Part shown: one piece after another, positions 15,884-22,847 of the stretch | Numbering within the stretch: position 1 is the stretch's first letter | Layout of the letters: the number at the start of each line of letters is the position of its first letter | Source of the DNA: Escherichia phage vB_EcoP_B | Direction: 5' to 3' (one strand) | Sequence record: NC_047806.1 | Length of the DNA: 44,018 nt | Position numbers and translations under genes: made by a program | Notes under the pieces: generated by a model | Seen by the model: only the letters and a program-made list of their open reading frames with translations | Told to the model about the DNA's origin: nothing | Databases searched by the model: none

Positions 15884-16012
15884 TTAGAACCCCCACGCAG
15901 CGCGTTTAGATGCACGGTCACGGACAGGTTTATTCAGCTTCTTGCCTTTCTTCTGCCCTTCTTCCATGTCAAAACGGTTAGCTTTACGGGTCATCTTCTC
16001 AAAGTTACGCAT
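15884..16012 (-). CDS. gp1.1-like small basic protein (42 aa); not in ORF track (<60 aa)
   Basis: ATG 16010-16012 with GGAG SD just downstream of promoter 16038-16060; translation MRNFEKMTRKANRFDMEEGQKKGKKLNKPVRDRASKRAAWGF resembles T7 gp1.1 (MRNFEKMT..., from memory). Confidence 0.5.
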   Translation of the reverse strand: MRNFEKMTRKANRFDMEEGQKKGKKLNKPVRDRASKRAAWGF

Positions 16013-16037
16013 GGTTAAATCTCCAAAGTGAGTTAAT

Positions 16038-16060
16038 CTTATCTATACTGTCCGGTAAAT
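16038..16060 (-). promoter_or_regulatory. phage RNAP promoter variant (upstream of gp1.1-like ORF)
   Basis: ATTTACCGGACAGTATAGATAAG (C-to-G change in core). Confidence 0.5.
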
Positions 16061-16065
16061 ACGAA

Positions 16066-16081
16066 GTCTCACATGTGAGAC
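16066..16081 (-). other. GTCTCAC..GTGAGAC palindromic hairpin element
   Basis: perfect 16-bp palindrome gtctcacatgtgagac, 5 nt upstream of promoter 16038-16060. Confidence 0.55.
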
Positions 16082-16084
16082 AAC

Positions 16085-16223
16085 CTAGGTCTGCCCTTCC
16101 TCTAAGTGGTAATAAGAGGAAGGAAGAAGGTAATAGGTATTCCTAGATAACCTATATAACCTTTAATACCTATTACTTCCTTTATATCCTTTATCTTCCC
16201 TTTCTTTCCCGTCTCCGACGGCT
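16085..16223. other. AT-rich repeat-containing spacer between tandem phage promoters; candidate primary replication origin
   Basis: non-coding, AT-rich, repeated AGGAAG/TATTACC/AGGTTAT motifs; flanked by promoters 16224-16244 and 16038-16060 (T7 origin sits in the analogous place). Confidence 0.35.
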
Positions 16224-16244
16224 ATCCTATAGTGTCCGGTAAAT
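16224..16244 (-). promoter_or_regulatory. phage RNAP promoter (first after RNAP gene)
   Basis: ATTTACCGGACACTATAGGAT. Confidence 0.6.
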
Positions 16245-16247
16245 AAA

Positions 16248-16263
16248 GTCTCACATGTGAGAC
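16248..16263 (-). other. GTCTCAC..GTGAGAC palindromic hairpin element
   Basis: perfect 16-bp palindrome, 3 nt upstream of promoter 16224-16244. Confidence 0.55.
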
Positions 16264-16298
16264 ACGTTTTATGTTAATGAAATGTTACAGGTAGTAGG

Positions 16299-16327
16299 TA
16301 AAAGAAAGCCACTCCCGAAGGAATGGC
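16299..16327 (-). terminator. intrinsic terminator after RNAP gene (early terminator candidate)
   Basis: RNA GCCAUUCC-UUCG-GGAGUGGC (8-bp stem, UUCG loop) followed by CUUUCUUUU. Confidence 0.55.
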
Positions 16328-16336
16328 CTATTAATA

Positions 16337-18964
16337 TTATGCGAAACAATAGTCTGAAACTAAGATTTCGTTAAGGTCAAACTCCCCTTGCTCTGGTACT
16401 TGGATTCCGGTGTCTACTAACCAACGCTCTTCGTGCACATCTAGCAGGTTTTGCAGGGCATTATGGTTTTGATACATCTTAACCATTTCTTCCCTTAAGC
16501 TATCCCGCAGGTCTGCGGTACGTCCTGCATGAGTACCGAAAGAATCATGGATGACTGCAATGGATGTAATACCTTTATCCACTAGGTCACATACAGTCAG
16601 AATCAGGTGGCTAGCATCGTGACCATGGACGAAGTTAGGAGCAGCCGCACCCATCATTGCCGTTTCATCAACTACATCTGTTTCAATCTGGAGACTCATC
16701 TTGATTTCACCCATCAAGCAAGTGGATACGCGGAGCATATCTGTAGCCATTATCTTTTGTTGCAAGATGAAGCCAGTTGGTAAGGGATATTCTAAGCCTT
16801 CGTTTCTTTTAGCTGCGAAACGTGCAAGCTGACGAATCATTTTCATTGCCACTATAGGAGCTTTAACCACTTCCGAGATAGAAGGCCAGATTAAAGCTGT
16901 CATATAGTTATAAGCTGCGCTAGGTGTCAGGCTGTCTTTACGGTCATTATCAAAAGGGTGTACAGGATTGGCGGTACGCCCTTCCGCAATAGCCCGTTGG
17001 GCCTCTTTTTCTTCTAAATCAACGATATAATCAATCACTGACTCACGGCAGGTTAGACGTGTGCTGCCATAAGGTAGTGTCATTACGGGCTTTTTGGTCA
17101 GGCCGCGAGTGATTCCTATCATATCCCACGCACTAGCCATACTACGCAGTTCCGCACCTGTTAAAGTCACGCTGCCAGAAGTGAAGGTTTCCGCATCCTC
17201 TGCATTCATGTATGCATAATTCTTCTGAATTACTACCTGCGCAACGGCACCATAAATATCTTGAGGAGAGTCAGAGGGCTTAAGGTTTACTGCTTTCGCA
17301 CCTACTGCATCGCGTAGCATAGCACTGTAGTGCTGGATACCAGAACAACTACCATCTTGATGGACTGGGAGGTGCGTCATGAATTGGTCTTGCGTGCCTT
17401 CATCCAGTGCATCCAGATAACGCGCATATTCAAAGCACCATGCAAGGAAGCCGTAAGGGGAGTCGGCATTTACCCATTGAGTGAAGGTCAGCGGATCCGC
17501 TGCAATGTCGCGGCACATGTCTTGAAATTCACCATCCAGCACGTTAGCGGTGCGCACGTCAAAAGTTTTCTTATCCCAACCCCAGTTATTAGCCCCGTTC
17601 ACCAAAAACCACTTAAGCGCCTCAGCGCTATCAAGACGCTGCCCTTCGGTAAAACGGAGCAATGCCTTGCCTAAGTCGTTTGATTGCGGAGAGAGCGTGC
17701 TAGATTGCGCGTAGACGCGGCTGCGGCTGTCCAGAGCATACACGAAGTATATTGCGTCAAATTGGCTGTATTTACGGGCCTGCCCTACCATGCGGACGGT
17801 CGCCGCCGATTTGCTGCCGCGCTTAGTCTCAGCGGTATACAGCTTGGTGCATTCACCTTTCCAGTTGATGAAGGCTTGCCATTGTTCCGGTGTTAACATT
17901 TCTTTCAGTTCACGTCCTCGCAGGTGCTGGAACTCTAACGGCACCGGATTAGCTGGCTTGTTCTCACGGTCGATGAGTGGTTTAAAGGAAGGTACACCAT
18001 AGCCGAGGTCTAGACGTATAACGTCCTCCACAACCTGTAAAACCTCTTTATTAACCTGCCACTTAGTTGCCTGCAAAGCGTTAACAGCCTTATAAACGGC
18101 TGGCATTTGCTTTTTGGTCAGCTTGCGGACGTGCTCACGATTGCCTTTTACCAGACGAATACGGCTTGCTACTTTCTCAGTATGAAACCCACCGTTAAAA
18201 GGTGATACCCAAGGGCGGGGAGGTATAACGCAAGGTGCATAGGCAGGGCTGAGCTGCGCTACATGTTCCTTAAATGCAGTTATCCACTCTCCAACATGTT
18301 CACTGGTCTGTAAATAGTAAACACCATGCTTTCCGCCGTTAGTGCGCAAGGTACGAAGGAAGACAGGTTGACCATTGAAGAATACACTATTCTCCAATAT
18401 TTCGAGCAAGGTCATACCGATTTGCAGCAAGGTGTCTTTAGGCCATGCCTCCCAACGGGAGAAATCCGCGTCACGGTCAGCAACAGATTTCTCAGCTACT
18501 ACCGCTACGTTGTGCGCATGACGATAAGATTTAGTCTTGCTAGCCTTAAGCGACTTCTTCACTTTCTCAAAGTACTTAGCTGCGTGACCTTCCAGCTTGC
18601 TAAAACGTACTTGGTCTTCGATGCGGTCCGCTACATTCATAGCGATGGCTTGTAAGGTAACGTCTGTATTCAGCATGTCCATAACGATTTTCATGGTGAT
18701 ATATGCTGCTACTTCGTTTTCTACGCAGTTAATGAAAGCTAATGCACGCGGTGCGCGGCCTCTTTTACCTTCGTACTCTTCCTTATAAGCCTGAATACCT
18801 TCCGCCATAGGTGCGATTAGTTCGGACAATAAGCGGCGATTCCATGCCGTGTCTGATTCATTACCGGATGCAATCTGGCGTTGTTGGTCCGCTTCAAAGC
18901 GACGGATACCGCCGTTAAACATTTCTTCTTCAAGTTGAAGTTGAATAGCGTGTAGGTCTTGCAT
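16337..18964 (-). CDS. single-subunit DNA-directed RNA polymerase (T7/SP6-like), 875 aa
   Basis: ORF track; [18 protein letters not shown] and C-terminal ...DYCFA match T7 RNAP catalytic and foot motifs; length close to SP6-group RNAP; AGGAG SD. Confidence 0.9.
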
Positions 18965-19027
18965 CTTGTTTACTCCTAGTGAAAGAAACCTTAATAGGTG
19001 ACACCTAAGAAGATGCCACCGATAAGG

Positions 19028-19912
19028 TTACTTAGTCAACTCTTCTACTGCCTCAGAGATTAAGGGCCATGCTTCATGGCCTTCACCGTAGCCTAGCTTA
19101 ACCAGTTCGCGGCGTGCCTTGTTAACTGCTGTTTTCTTCGTTGCCTCCTCAGCGCTTAAACCTAAGCGAGCATAGAAGCAGGAAGATTTGAATTGCGGCA
19201 GCATAGGCGCGGCTGCCTTCTTGCTTTCGCGTGCGCTACTTAAGGAGGCGATGCGGTCATTGGCTGCCTGTAATTGCTCAGTCAGTGCTTTAATTTGTGC
19301 CAGCAGACCAGCAATAGCGGCATTCTCAGTATTAGCCGTGTTATCCAGCGGCGCGGCCTTCGGTGCCTCCGGCTTGCTTTCCTCTCCCCATGGTGCTGAT
19401 TCGTCGGCCTCCTGCTCGCTCGCGGGTGGCACTACCTGCGGCGCTTGCATTTCCTGTGATTCTGCGGCCTCAGTCGCGTTCTCCTGCGGTTTTACTGTCT
19501 CAGCCTTAGATTGTACCGTTTCGGCCTTTATCTCTTTCTTAGGCTCAATCAAGGCGTTTACGGAGTTAGTGTCCAGCTTGCCATCTGCGGCGAGTTCTGC
19601 GGCCTTCTCCATGATTATATTTTCATCAGCGAAAGGAACAAGCGCCAGCATTACACGCATAGCCACACCTTTAAAGCGTTCGTCTCCTTTAAAGACACGG
19701 GCTACACTCATCAGCTTGTAGCATTGTGCCTTCTTGATGCCGAACTCTGATTCTACATAAGCTAAAAAGTCTTTTTGACCTTCGAAATCACCGCGTAATT
19801 CATTCAGACAAGCGCCAACTTTGATGTAAGAAGTGCCGATATTGTCTAAGTGCTGCTTGATTTCAGCGGTTGCAGCTTCACGAACAGACAGGAGGATGTT
19901 TTCAGTAGTCAT
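19028..19912 (-). CDS. early protein of unknown function (about 294 aa) with acidic low-complexity linker
   Basis: ORF track 19028..19921 (GTG start) trimmed to ATG with AAGGTG SD. Confidence 0.55.
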   Translation of the reverse strand: MTTENILLSVREAATAEIKQHLDNIGTSYIKVGACLNELRGDFEGQKDFLAYVESEFGIKKAQCYKLMSVARVFKGDERFKGVAMRVMLALVPFADENIIMEKAAELAADGKLDTNSVNALIEPKKEIKAETVQSKAETVKPQENATEAAESQEMQAPQVVPPASEQEADESAPWGEESKPEAPKAAPLDNTANTENAAIAGLLAQIKALTEQLQAANDRIASLSSARESKKAAAPMLPQFKSSCFYARLGLSAEEATKKTAVNKARRELVKLGYGEGHEAWPLISEAVEELTK

Positions 19913-19976
19913 AATAGTCACCTTATATAGTGGTAAGTAAATATCACATAGCCCACACAGGCAGGCTATAGGCTAG

Positions 19977-20204
19977 TTACTTGATGTAATGCCACGTCTC
20001 TATAAATGCATCCTTACTTAATACGCACTCCATGCCTCCCGGTGTAACATATTCTACTAAGCCACCTCTCACACGAAGGTAATTACCGCCTTCCTTTCTT
20101 AGTTTGCGTTTAGCTTTATCGAATAAAAACTCACGGTAAAGGTGATAGGAGCACCAGCTTAAGCCAATAAGAGCAAATGCCATAATGATGCTATCTAAAT
20201 CCAT
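19977..20204 (-). CDS. early small membrane protein (75 aa)
   Basis: ORF track; N-terminal hydrophobic helix IIMAFALIGLSW; AGGAG SD. Confidence 0.5.
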   Translation of the reverse strand: MDLDSIIMAFALIGLSWCSYHLYREFLFDKAKRKLRKEGGNYLRVRGGLVEYVTPGGMECVLSKDAFIETWHYIK

Positions 20205-20269
20205 AGTCTTAACTCCTAGTAAGTGAAAGTTTAATCAGGCGCTACCGTAGCAACGCCTTGTTAAGCCTT

Positions 20270-20290
20270 CTCTTATAGTGTCAGCTAAAT
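20270..20290 (-). promoter_or_regulatory. phage RNAP promoter-like sequence in early region
   Basis: ATTTAGCTGACACTATAAGAG (SP6-like TGACAC, TATAAG instead of TATAGAAG). Confidence 0.4.
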
Positions 20291-20398
20291 AGTTTGTATG
20301 TAGTACCTAGCACTTCCTCACGAATCTGCGCAAATCGTAAGGAACATTTCAGGGTTACACCGTCTGAGAAGATGAAGTTATATTGCCTTTCCATCTTA

Positions 20399-20728
20399 TT
20401 ATTCCTCTTCTCCGCCTTCATACCAAACTACATCGCTGTCATTTGGTACATCATTATAAAGAGCTTCATAGATGCGAGCTTGTAGAATCTTGGTTACATC
20501 CTTCGTATCAGGAATCAAACCAGCATCTTCAAAATCAACATCAATGCCATCAGCAGCCATCACAGTAAAAATCTCACTGTAATAAACTGGCACCATGCTA
20601 TCTACAACCTCATGCAGTGCATCAGAGTAATCATCATCTTCACGAATCTCATCGTACTTGATGCGCTCGTTGAATGCTTCAACAGTTGCAGCCAGAAGGT
20701 TGTAGTAAGCGTTAGCGTTGCGTTCCAT
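20399..20728 (-). CDS. ocr: Ocr-like antirestriction DNA-mimic protein (gp0.3-like), 109 aa
   Basis: ORF track; block ERIKYDEIREDDDYSDALHEVVDSMVPVYYSEIFTVMAADGIDVDFEDAGLIPDTKDVTKILQARIYEAL closely parallels T7 Ocr as remembered; highly acidic. Confidence 0.7.
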   Translation of the reverse strand: MERNANAYYNLLAATVEAFNERIKYDEIREDDDYSDALHEVVDSMVPVYYSEIFTVMAADGIDVDFEDAGLIPDTKDVTKILQARIYEALYNDVPNDSDVVWYEGGEEE

Positions 20729-20818
20729 GATTTAATCCTCATTAGTTAGGTTACATTATAGGACACTCAAAGAATACCCTAGGTTTAACCTATCCAGACT
20801 AAGAAGCGACTACCCATA

Positions 20819-20864
20819 TTGTTAAAGAGCGTGGCTTGTGCCTTGATAGGCTGGCTAGTGCCAG
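20819..20864 (-). promoter_or_regulatory. early-mRNA processing-site candidate (hairpin + GCTCTTTAACAAT)
   Basis: exact 13-mer shared by three early intergenic sites, each next to an inverted repeat. Confidence 0.4.
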
Positions 20865-20872
20865 CAACTATT

Positions 20873-21037
20873 TTATAAGATACTATTCACAAGTTTATCT
20901 ATTTTAGCATTAATTGCAACCACTTTACTATAAAGTTTATCGTGTTTGCTCTTATCTGTGTTAGCTTGCCAAGCGGCATAAGCAACAGCAAGTTTCTCTT
21001 GCAATGCATCATAGCGTTTACGTTGTGCGTTAGTCAT
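20873..21037 (-). CDS. early small protein (54 aa); not in ORF track
   Basis: ATG 21035-21037 with AAGGTG SD; translation MTNAQRKRYDALQEKLAVAYAAWQ... Confidence 0.4.
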   Translation of the reverse strand: MTNAQRKRYDALQEKLAVAYAAWQANTDKSKHDKLYSKVVAINAKIDKLVNSIL

Positions 21038-21082
21038 GATAGTTCACCTTTGTTAGTAAGCCTATCAAGACACAAACCAGAT

Positions 21083-21119
21083 TGTTAAAGAGCGGGATGT
21101 TTAAAGACGTCGCCGTCTT
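21083..21119 (-). promoter_or_regulatory. early-mRNA processing-site candidate (hairpin + GCTCTTTAACAAT)
   Basis: palindrome AAGACGTCGCCGTCTT adjacent to the 13-mer. Confidence 0.4.
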
Positions 21120-21126
21120 GATGCTT

Positions 21127-21155
21127 AATGTAGCCTTGTATGCCGTGGTTGTCAA
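21127..21155 (-). promoter_or_regulatory. candidate host sigma70 early promoter
   Basis: minus strand TTGACA - 17 nt - TACATT, same architecture as 21822-21850. Confidence 0.45.
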
Positions 21156-21163
21156 TAGTTAAT

Positions 21164-21388
21164 TTAGAGATTTGTCGTGATTACTTCATCGTAATCATAA
21201 TCTTCACTGCCTAGATACTCAGTAATGACTTGGTTGTCATACTCAGATACTAAGGTAACTCGGTGATATTCAGTGTCGTAATCTATCAAATAGTGATACA
21301 CATCAACACCTACGCCAGCTTGCATCATATCATCATGGAAGCGGATAGCTTCACTAGCTGATTCGAAGAAAACCTCATGCTGATACAT
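21164..21388 (-). CDS. early very acidic small protein (74 aa)
   Basis: ORF track; 17 Asp/Glu vs 2 Arg/Lys; strong SD AAGGAGG. Confidence 0.5.
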   Translation of the reverse strand: MYQHEVFFESASEAIRFHDDMMQAGVGVDVYHYLIDYDTEYHRVTLVSEYDNQVITEYLGSEDYDYDEVITTNL

Positions 21389-21530
21389 CCTCTTTAACCT
21401 CCTTTAATGTAGAACGTGCATATCTGTTAGCATCGCCGTAAGCGTTAGGCGTGTATTGCGAGGTTTCATGGCCAGCAAACCACGCATCGACTAAGAGTTG
21501 CTTTAGTTGGTCTTCAGTCAACTGAATCAT
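21375..21530 (-). CDS. early small protein (51 aa); not in ORF track
   Basis: ATG 21528-21530 with AAGGAG SD; overlaps both neighbours. Confidence 0.35.
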   Translation of the reverse strand: MIQLTEDQLKQLLVDAWFAGHETSQYTPNAYGDANRYARSTLKEVKEDVSA

Positions 21531-21699
21531 TACTTAACTCCTTCATCAAGTCACGTTTCTTGTTAACTGTATCGGTCCAACTTTCGTTCAGGAAGCGGTG
21601 ATACAGTGCCAACTCGTCATCTGTAAGTAATTCGTTGTTACGAATCATGTAGCATAACAGAGTGAAGAGAACGGACAGTTCACGGTTATTTAATGTCAT
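21514..21699 (-). CDS. first early protein (about 61 aa)
   Basis: ORF track 21514..21741 trimmed to ATG 21697-21699 with GAGGTG SD. Confidence 0.45.
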   Translation of the reverse strand: MTLNNRELSVLFTLLCYMIRNNELLTDDELALYHRFLNESWTDTVNKKRDLMKELSNDSVD

Positions 21700-21758
21700 A
21701 GTTAACACCTCATTCAATAAGTAATTAACCACGGCATACATAGGTTACACTAAGCAAA

Positions 21759-21808
21759 TTGTTAAAGAGCAAGGCAACATAAGTCACCTACCGTTTGGCT
21801 ATGTTGCC
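21759..21808 (-). promoter_or_regulatory. early-mRNA processing-site candidate (hairpin + GCTCTTTAACAAT)
   Basis: inverted repeat GGCAACAT/ATGTTGCC adjacent to the 13-mer. Confidence 0.4.
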
Positions 21809-21821
21809 TCCCGATGGCTGT

Positions 21822-21850
21822 AATGTACTACTAGCTTTTGCCTGTGTCAA
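21822..21850 (-). promoter_or_regulatory. candidate host sigma70 early promoter
   Basis: minus strand TTGACA - 17 nt - TACATT, upstream of first early gene. Confidence 0.5.
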
Positions 21851-21915
21851 CACTAAGTTTCACTAAGATAGACTATTTATGTGATACATGTCACAACTAC
21901 TAAGACAAACCTAGG

Positions 21916-22085
21916 TTGTCTAACGTGTGAGACTAAGGAAAAAAAAAAAAAAAAAAAAGCAATAGATACAGAGCTAGGATAGGCTAGATTGGCTAGGTAT
22001 TCCAAACGTGAAGGGGAGAAAAAGGAAAAAAAAAAAAAAAAAAAAGCAATAGATACAGAGCTAGGATAGGCTAGATTGGCTAGGT
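21916..22085. repeat. tandem direct repeat (two about 87-bp units) each containing an A20 tract; probable genome-terminus / terminal-repeat junction
   Basis: 62-bp exact repeat GG-A20-GCAATAGATACAGAGCTAGGATAGGCTAGATTGGCTAGGT at 21937-21998 and 22024-22085; lies between last late gene and first early gene. Confidence 0.7.
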
Positions 22086-22185
22086 TTCTGGTGTTCCTCC
22101 TACTGCATCTTATCACTATTACCTACTCTCAGCGGTCTACCGACCGCGACCTAATTGCATCTTATAGCTTTAGCTATGCAATCAC

Positions 22186-22320
22186 TAAGGTCTGGCACTA
22201 AGACTAACTAAGGTACACTACTAAGTTGATACTAAGCTAAGCACTAAGGCTTTAACTAAGGCAACCCACTAAGGCTAACCTAAGCCATCCATCAAGGAAT
22301 AACCTAAGGTACACGTGAGC
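22186..22320. repeat. dense array of CTAAG-containing short repeats (11 copies in 135 bp)
   Basis: cactaagg, cactaaga, aactaagg, ... ; further copies scattered 21845-23060. Confidence 0.7.
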
Positions 22321-22847
22321 GAGTGAACGGAGCGCAAGCGGAGTGAGGAGCAGTGAGTGAAGCGTAGCGAAACGAACAGATAGCCCACACCCTCATGCCC
22401 TGTCAAACGCTCAGGAATGGCCCTAAAACGGCCTGTGTAAGCCCTAAGCGGTTGCACTAAGGCAATCACCTTGTCCAATACTAAGGCGCGCCCTAGCGCT
22501 TCCTAGGTGTTCTCCTTGTGCAGCCACTAAGAGCAGACCTCGGCAAGCTCTAGGCCACCCGTCGAGCTTCCTGCGGCAGCAGGTTGAAGACGGACCAGCC
22601 CAGCCCAATTCCCAAGCCAACCGCAGCGCGGCCCCATATGGGGGAAATCCGGCGAGGGCGAGGGCGAGAGAGCTGACACACGCCTATATCAAAATTTTGA
22701 CTTTGGTTACTTTGTGACCACCTTTGGTCTGCCCTTTTGGTTACACTAAGATTATTCCTGCTAAGTACAGGTACACCAGCAGTGGGCCATAGATACATGC
22801 TGTGCATAAGAGGGCTAACAGTAGGTCTTTCATGTTACCTCATTTGA

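Follow-up and report, generated by a model that had tools for sequence, protein, structure and literature searches.

Three intergenic sites in the early region of Escherichia phage vB_EcoP_B carry the same 13-nucleotide (nt) sequence, which raises the question of what this repeated element does in the RNA transcribed from it. The stretch of DNA analysed here (sequence record NC_047806.1, 44,018 nt, hereafter the window) belongs to an SP6-like podophage of the genus Vectrevirus, and the 2.4 kb around the motif are approximately 95% identical to Escherichia phage K1E. An earlier reading of the letters alone (the sequence-only reading) had proposed that the 13-mer marks candidate RNase III processing sites of the early polycistronic mRNA. 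The comparisons described below point to a different identity: we consider it probable, at roughly three chances in four, that the 13-mer is a boxA antiterminator of the type found in ribosomal RNA (rrn) operons, placed in early transcripts of the host RNA polymerase (RNAP) and wired to long-range RNA helices.

Antitermination by boxA and Nus factors is textbook knowledge from the rRNA operons and from lambdoid phages, and T7 is known to have one boxA. While the element and its T7 copy are known, what appears to be new, as judged from sequence, is an rrn-like layout of multiple boxA copies and helices in a group of lytic phages. The literature searched, which did not cover the original SP6 and K1-5 genome papers, contained no mention of boxA in descriptions of SP6, K1-5, K1E or T7-like genomes, and no description of boxA-coupled long-range helices or of an rrn-like multi-boxA layout; a prior mention of the boxA copies in those original papers is possible.

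Identity, placement and conservation of the 13-mer

The record runs reverse-complemented and permuted and its early genes lie on the minus strand; therefore, the relevant form of the plus-strand motif ATTGTTAAAGAGC is its coding-strand reading, GCTCTTTAACAAT. In the whole 44,018 bp, ATTGTTAAAGAGC has exactly three matches on the plus strand (listed by coding strand as copies A, B and C in Table 1), and the count stays at three when up to one mismatch is allowed. In 100 dinucleotide-preserving shuffles, the mean was 0.11 matches and none reached three. The three exact copies described by the sequence-only reading were recovered, with its coordinates found to be off by 1-2 nt and to span 12 nt of a 13-nt motif, and the inverted repeat said to stand beside each of them is present as hairpins A, B and C. 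Neither strand of the 44 kb contains a boxA other than these three. All of them belong to the coding strand and follow the two best matches to a host sigma-70 promoter within 1 kb.

The sequence GCTCTTTAACAAT agrees at 13 of 13 positions with the leader boxA of the Escherichia coli rrnH operon (nt 429-441, context cTGCTCTTTAACAATTTatc), and copy A together with its flanks is identical to the rrnH leader over 16 nt (TGCTCTTTAACAATTT). Copy B shares 18 identical nt (GCTCTTTAACAATCTGGT) with nt 813-830 of T7, and the boxA in the rrn 16S-23S spacer differs from the phage motif by one base. All three copies fit GYTCTTTAANA, the consensus of functional gamma-proteobacterial boxA (PMC5725501), as well as the rrn form GCUCUUUAACAA. 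BoxA of the rrn type binds NusB-NusE at approximately 5-8 nM, far more tightly than the lambda nut boxA does (PMC2800207), and boxA is both necessary and sufficient for recruiting the rrn antitermination complex (PMC10250234). In addition, the whole T7 genome contains the exact 13-mer once (nt 813-825), and a passage of PMC3709561 that cites Savalia 2010 names this copy a "boxA anti-termination element", mutation of which makes Gp2 dispensable.

The copies are also linked to host promoters. P_A and P_B are the two best sigma-70 matches in 16000-22600. The predicted start of P_A lies approximately 45 nt upstream of boxA A, and boxA A and boxA B begin 51 and 33 nt, respectively, after the -10 hexamers of P_A and P_B, with a hairpin in between. 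The spacing from P2 to boxA in rrnH is comparable, and hairpin A occupies the position that boxB has in rrn leaders. Copy C belongs to the same transcription unit as copies A and B. A homologous promoter precedes the first boxA of SP6, and P_B is kept in nearly all relatives. As for hairpin C, its arms are swapped in K1E (GCCAGC...GCUGGC), and its loop length varies among relatives, which brings the 5′ halves out of register in the alignment. The SP6-type phage promoter motif was found 10 times, always on the minus strand, whereas 0.02 matches would be expected, and no boxA was found in the regions that these ten promoters serve. Phage RNAPs of the T7 type have been reported not to use Nus factors (PMC5725501), with which the confinement of boxA to the host-promoter region is in agreement.

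A boxA RNA that recruits NusB-NusE and modifies the host RNAP on early phage transcripts is well known from the nutL and nutR sites of lambda, which the sites in the window would resemble in this respect. However, the lambda boxA is of the weaker CGCUCUUA type and lies 5′ of the N-binding boxB, whereas the copies in the window are of the high-affinity rrn type and have their hairpin on the 5′ side, which is the rrn order. The nut-site order, with a boxB hairpin 3′ of boxA, was not found here; no search for an N homologue was made.

Consensus boxA, in one to three copies, is present in all 22 relatives that include the early region, namely K1E, K1-5, SP6, 15 of 16 IMG/VR contigs (the sixteenth, L022, lacks the early region and was left out), Klebsiella phages KPN7 and Z1, Vibrio phage R24D and T3. 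Three consensus copies each were found in K1E and K1-5, with a fourth in K1E that has one extra T, whereas SP6 has two and a third with one mismatch, and the 15 IMG/VR relatives have two or three. At greater distance, two copies are present in KPN7 (RNAP 69% identical), one in Z1 (46%), three in R24D (42%) and one in T3. Except for one consensus match in L014 (position 2189), which is on the opposite strand, these copies precede the RNAP gene on the coding strand. Across 52 distinct contexts, the 13-mer core is invariant, while the upstream flanks fall into at least five unrelated sequence families. A strict promoter pattern (TTGAC[AT]-N16-18-TAnnnT) lies no more than 100 nt upstream in 24 of these contexts, compared with a background of 0.017 per 100 nt. 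Furthermore, a scan of viral contigs for GCTCTTTAACAATNTG gave at least 120 loci; among the matches listed, many are in T7-like contigs of 38-41 kb, approximately 0.5-0.9 kb from an end, and others are in contigs that probably contain rrn sequence.

Long-range helices adjoining the boxA copies

A repeat search revealed that the flanks of the boxA copies are mutual inverted repeats across hundreds of nucleotides, which pair as two helices, termed X and Y. Helix X comprises 30 positions, among which the window phage has an A.C mismatch and a bulge, and its arms, approximately 600 nt apart, enclose three small open reading frames (ORFs; 21699-21164). Its predicted free energy (dG, RNAduplex) is -44.5 kcal/mol, compared with -16.4 +/- 2.9 for shuffles (z -9.8). 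The first early gene has its Shine-Dalgarno sequence approximately 15 nt past the end of the 5′ strand, and, judging from their predicted start, transcripts from P_B would begin just past the 3′ strand. Helix Y has 21 bp, with arms approximately 210 nt apart around an ORF of 54 amino acids (21037-20873), and a dG of -44.9 kcal/mol against -18.8 +/- 3.2 for shuffles (z -8.1). The next boxA follows the 3′ strand after 28 nt in helix X and after 1 nt in helix Y. In the helix model, each boxA would stay unpaired and connect a hairpin or helix on its 5′ side to the helix that follows; local minimum free energy (MFE) folds leave boxA mostly unpaired, although alternative weak pairings occur. Pairwise RNAduplex runs on whole intergenic regions yielded, besides helices X and Y, only over-extended and uninformative duplexes. 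The 5′ strand of helix X was also considered as an antisense promoter and rejected, as it has no -35 element and its -10 element is not kept in relatives.

Both helices covary. Among 17 distinct sequences of helix X, 99.0% of cells are paired and two pairs have changed on both sides, one of them from U-A to A-U in four sequences; among 10 sequences of helix Y, 98.4% are paired, with four compensated pairs (14 cells). When the partner strand was slid by 1-3 columns as a control, pairing of helices X and Y fell to 24-46%, and to 25-46% in helix Y by itself. Nearly all relatives give z scores of -5 to -11 for these pairings; the first pair of L020 alone shows no such signal (z -0.2). In addition, the non-Watson-Crick cells comprise 48 G.U and 6 A.C, and in 24 of the 27 cases compared, the sense duplex has the greater stability over its antisense counterpart. 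The excess of G.U over A.C, together with the greater stability of the sense duplex, suggests that selection has acted on the sense RNA rather than on DNA.

Helices in this position are also found where the arm sequences have diverged. A third arm family forms a helix of approximately 25 bp in L016 and KPN7, and in Vibrio phage vB_VcaP_R24D a 24-bp helix occupies the same position, with a dG of -46.8, the next best pairing having -21.6.

Several further observations were made on R24D. Between 1180 and 1560, this phage has TTGACA promoters, its boxA copies are at 1227, 1516 and 1893, and its helix pairs 1241-1265 with 1470-1495. The 3′ strand again overlaps a promoter, in a phage of a different host genus. 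A core, CUUGAUAGGCU/AGCCUAUCAAG, is common to the R24D helix and helix Y of the E. coli phages.

The closest parallel to this layout is the rrn operon itself. In rrnH, the predicted 16S leader-trailer duplex starts at nt 442, the base after the leader boxA, and the predicted 23S duplex starts at 2454, immediately past the spacer boxA (2441-2453); the 5′ strand is therefore offset from boxA by 0 nt in both rrnH helices and by 2 nt in the phage. The 16S and 23S leader-trailer helices have 25-40 bp and 27 bp, respectively; covariation backs the former and RNase III processes the latter, and in the model put forward for them NusB on the polymerase retains boxA, and with it the 5′ strand, close to the RNA exit channel until the trailer has come out (PMC10250234). 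As in rrn operons, the phage has the order promoter, boxB-like hairpin and boxA, with further boxA copies inside the operon, and the 5′ strand of a 21-30 bp helix that encloses a functional unit comes directly after boxA, so that the sequence of elements reads boxA, 5′ strand, cassette, 3′ strand and next boxA. Unlike in rrn operons, the enclosed units are short translated mRNA cassettes (approximately 170-540 nt coding) rather than rRNAs, the 3′ strand of helix X also serves as promoter, and there is no clear boxC (UCUGUGUGGG), with only a resemblance to UGUGU in the 5′ strand of helix Y. A further difference is that, for the phage, Nus binding and RNase III cutting are predictions.

Two helical turns are approximately what RNase III requires, and helices X and Y are long enough for this. 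It is plausible, by analogy, that they are double-stranded RNA of the kind that RNase III cuts in pre-rRNA, a structure that differs from the hairpins which the sequence-only reading had in mind.

Proposed mechanism and rival explanations

For the window phage, the identity, position, strand and conservation of the boxA sequence were observed, as were the helices and their covariation; from these we infer Nus binding, antitermination and RNase III cleavage. In the mechanism proposed, boxA (GCUCUUUAACAAU) in the nascent early RNA made by host RNAP would bind the NusB-NusE(S10) heterodimer, which would nucleate a ribosomal-type antitermination complex of NusA, NusG, SuhB and S4 on the polymerase. 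The modified polymerase would be processive and resistant to Rho-dependent termination over the early region of approximately 5.5 kb that ends with the RNAP gene, and it may also be faster, by extension from what is known of rrn and lambda N complexes; early transcription would stop at the terminator-like hairpin 16329-16306 past the RNAP gene. For each host promoter, P_A and P_B, a boxA of its own follows after 30-50 nt, beyond a hairpin. Helices X and Y would form co-transcriptionally with the aid of the boxA tether, RNase III would cut them to give cassette mRNAs with base-paired ends, and the polymerase could reload Nus factors at the next boxA. Transcription by the host enzyme pulls the T7 genome into the cell. 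By speculation from T7, a faster and more processive polymerase could likewise speed genome entry.

A bolder version, which we regard as a tentative possibility with the odds somewhat against it, holds that the SP6-like early operon is a structural mimic of an rRNA operon, in which the rrn antitermination complex (rrnTAC) as an "RNA-looping chaperone" has been co-opted for mRNA cassettes. According to this version, the Nus-loaded host RNAP would tether the 5′ strand at its exit channel while the cassette is looped out, and would deliver the tethered strand to the 3′ strand, giving a leader-trailer-type helix that RNase III could excise; the boxA repeats might double as joints for the swapping of early gene cassettes. 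In that case, these phages would provide a small, non-essential and genetically tractable system in which to examine the looping model.

If the boxA interpretation is true, it would explain how the host enzyme is kept processive, and possibly how transcription drives genome entry, as far as the phage RNAP gene, and it would predict that mRNAs contain long-range RNase III sites of a new class. The phage region would also offer a simple model in which to ask whether boxA-tethered RNA looping favors long-range helices, which is hard to address in the essential rRNA operons.

Several points weigh against this interpretation. Early mRNAs are translated and hence protected from Rho, so that the need for antitermination is not obvious. 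The relatives are mostly close to one another, and the covariation therefore rests on few independent events; since the 3′ strand of helix X is also P_B, part of its conservation is explained by the promoter alone. An arm-like sequence after boxA C (20817-20740) has no partner above background downstream to 16050. In T7 and T3, the best long-range partners after boxA have dG values of -29.7 and -22.8, respectively, close to those of the second-best windows, and without a clear partner in these two phages helix coupling is not universal among boxA-bearing phages. Lastly, boxA can act negatively, as it does in the 5′ untranslated region of suhB (PMC5725501), and boxA B and boxA A, at 44 and 59 nt from their start codons, are within or just beyond the range of suhB repression.

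This last point leads to the best of the rival explanations, which we nevertheless consider quite unlikely, namely that these are suhB-like negative elements at which bound Nus factors would cover the ribosome-binding site of the following gene and favor termination by Rho, thereby throttling the early cassettes. A boxA no more than approximately 50 nt from the start codon represses suhB, and such elements have been predicted before many genes (PMC5725501); the phage copies, too, are consensus boxA elements that stand in an mRNA leader close to a start codon, the third distance, for boxA C, being 90 nt. On the other hand, the passage cited above describes the T7 copy as behaving as an antiterminator, and the layout of promoter, hairpin, boxA and long-range helix, multi-copy, promoter-proximal and at the head of an essential operon, matches rrn and not suhB. 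Since the distal gene of the operon is the essential phage RNAP, polarity would be self-defeating. The effect of the phage boxA is expected to be in the positive direction, unlike that in suhB.

Conservation could also reflect exchange of DNA. Each cassette between P_B and the ocr-like gene is either there in full or missing altogether, with junctions exactly at boxA: K1E (1593-2345) has two, the window (20729-21163) has one, and L008, L013 and L021 have none. The boxA before ocr in K1E is GCTCTTTTAACAAT, the form with one extra T. Such junctions are what would be seen if the repeats were short, conserved DNA-level linkers through which related phages recombine and trade cassettes, and if they had no function as RNA. 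We think this very unlikely, as a recombination linker needs neither identity with the host boxA nor strand specificity nor a sigma-70 promoter upstream, and both the bias toward G.U over A.C and the greater stability of the sense duplex speak for selection on RNA. Recombination at the repeats is more readily regarded as a by-product than as what they are for.

The proposal from which the analysis started was that the 13-mer and its neighbouring hairpin form an RNase III site of the T7 type, i.e., a local irregular hairpin cut in an internal loop. It had in its favor that the motif, with hairpins adjoining, falls between the genes of a polycistronic early transcript, much as R0.3 to R18.5 of T7 are intercistronic sites in polycistronic transcripts, and that in T7 and T3 the motif, which the sequence-only reading had placed at the R0.3 site of T7, does occur just upstream of R0.3. 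In T7, the 13-mer is 63 nt past the A3 start and 100 nt before the ATG of gene 0.3, and a fold of 800-925 places the R0.3-type hairpin at approximately 844-911, with boxA 19 nt upstream of it; in T3, 28 nt separate boxA (781-793) from the annotated R0.3 stem-loop that follows it (822-875). Against the ten R sites of T7 stands a single copy of the motif, which is outside every R-site hairpin. T3 has one copy in its first 8 kb, and its annotated R0.3, R0.5, R1, R1.1 and R1.3 stem-loops do not contain the motif. Local folding around the three copies in the window departs from random modestly at best (z -1.7, -2.1 and -2.0) and leaves the 13-mer largely unpaired. Considering in addition that the motif equals the rrn boxA and that an antitermination phenotype is described for the T7 copy in the passage mentioned above, the T7-type site is highly improbable: the motif does belong to early transcripts of host RNAP, but is not itself an RNase III recognition element, and the sequence-only reading had the right neighbourhood but the wrong function, the element near R0.3 being a boxA and not an RNase III site. 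Because the 21-30 bp helices adjoining boxA are plausible substrates, the RNase III idea survives only indirectly, and the candidates near boxA are long-range helices instead of R-site hairpins. T7 and T3, members of the same family (Autographiviridae), have in common with the SP6-like phages the 13-mer in an early leader transcribed by host RNAP (in T7, downstream of A1-A3); they differ in having a single boxA followed by a local hairpin, R0.3, 19-28 nt on, where SP6-like phages have 2-4 copies, each adjoining a long-range helix.

Finally, that multi-boxA early RNAs serve as decoys which titrate NusB-NusE from the seven host rrn operons would suit the nanomolar affinity given above (PMC2800207) and several copies per transcript from strong promoters, but it is purely speculative, leaves the helix coupling and the single T7/T3 copy unexplained and appears most improbable as the function, although such titration is possible as an addition to the boxA mechanism.

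The fourth-copy site and other features of the early region

Table 1. Features of the early region and phage promoters of the window, with positions in NC_047806.1
Feature	Position	Strand	Remarks
boxA copy A, GCTCTTTAACAAT	21758..21770	minus	16 nt with flanks, TGCTCTTTAACAATTT, identical to rrnH leader
boxA copy B	21081..21093	minus	GCTCTTTAACAATCTGGT = T7 813-830, 18 nt identical
boxA copy C	20818..20830	minus	90 nt upstream of ocr-like gene (20728-20399)
Host sigma-70 promoter P_A, TTGACA-17 nt-TACATT (predicted)	21822..21850	minus	best score, 10/12; consensus match
Host sigma-70 promoter P_B, TTGACA-17 nt-TACATT (predicted)	21127..21155	minus	consensus match
Hairpin A, between P_A and boxA A	21771..21810	minus	MFE fold; ends 1 nt before boxA
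Hairpin B, AGACG-GCGA-CGUCU, between P_B and boxA B	21105..21118	minus	read directly; kept in relatives
Hairpin C, GCUGGC-ACUA-GCCAGC	20850..20865	minus	last 3 nt overlap 3′ strand of helix Y
Helix X, 5′ strand	21727..21756	minus	starts 2 nt after boxA A
Helix X, 3′ strand	21122..21150	minus	overlaps spacer and -10 of P_B
Helix Y, 5′ strand	21059..21079	minus	starts 2 nt after boxA B
Helix Y, 3′ strand	20832..20852	minus	ends 1 nt before boxA C
ocr-like gene	20728-20399	minus	
SP6-type phage-RNAP promoter, TTTAGCTGACACTATAAGA	20289-20271	minus	upstream of gp5, gp6 and RNAP gene, inside early region
Conserved stem-loop after phage promoter	20267-20228	minus	RNAalifold: 15 pairs, 5 with compensatory changes
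Phage RNA polymerase, 875 amino acids	18964-16337	minus	
SP6-type phage promoters	3771, 7365, 9280, 13014, 13707, 16225, 20271, 26118, 27791, 42652	minus	

A "degenerate fourth copy" of the motif had been placed at 20257-20267. It was not recovered even with three mismatches, and the site 20228..20289 was rejected as a boxA; the string in question, TTAACAAGG, is within the 5′ half of a conserved stem-loop that follows an SP6-type phage promoter (Table 1) and has a local fold z of -5.0. This stem-loop is the 5′-end hairpin of a phage transcript or, possibly, an R site in the style of T7, where R sites tend to be placed after a phage promoter. An Rfam search in E-value mode over 19900-22400 gave no relevant family; its sole result was a chance match of a microRNA-like (miRNA-like) kind, which marks a long hairpin at 20210-20281. 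For annotation, the boxA interpretation would correct a likely mislabelling of the three sites as RNase III sites, the "fourth copy" being the phage-promoter stem-loop.

A few features outside the boxA sites were also observed. Directly past the stop codon of the RNAP gene, a GC-rich hairpin with a U run (16306-16329, minus strand) resembles an intrinsic terminator and is likely to be the early terminator for host RNAP, analogous to TE of T7. Downstream of the same gene, a perfect 16-bp palindrome, GTCTCACATGTGAGAC, occurs twice (16248-16263 and 16066-16081); its first copy lies 5 nt ahead of a phage promoter (16243-16225), and it may serve as an operator or form a hairpin. In the gap between gp5 and gp6 (19947-19970, minus strand), there is a terminator-like 10-bp hairpin, UAUAGCCUGCC-UGUG-UGGGCUAUG, whose local fold (z -1.45) is not significant. 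Upstream of P_A, two direct repeats of 70 nt (21929-21998 and 22016-22085) are 97% identical and 87 nt apart, and each of them holds a 20-nt A run on the plus strand (a T run on the coding strand), so that they may be real biology or an assembly or homopolymer artefact. Dense short repeats of ACTAAG (CTTAGT on the coding strand) extend over 21850-22290, near the presumed left end of the genome.

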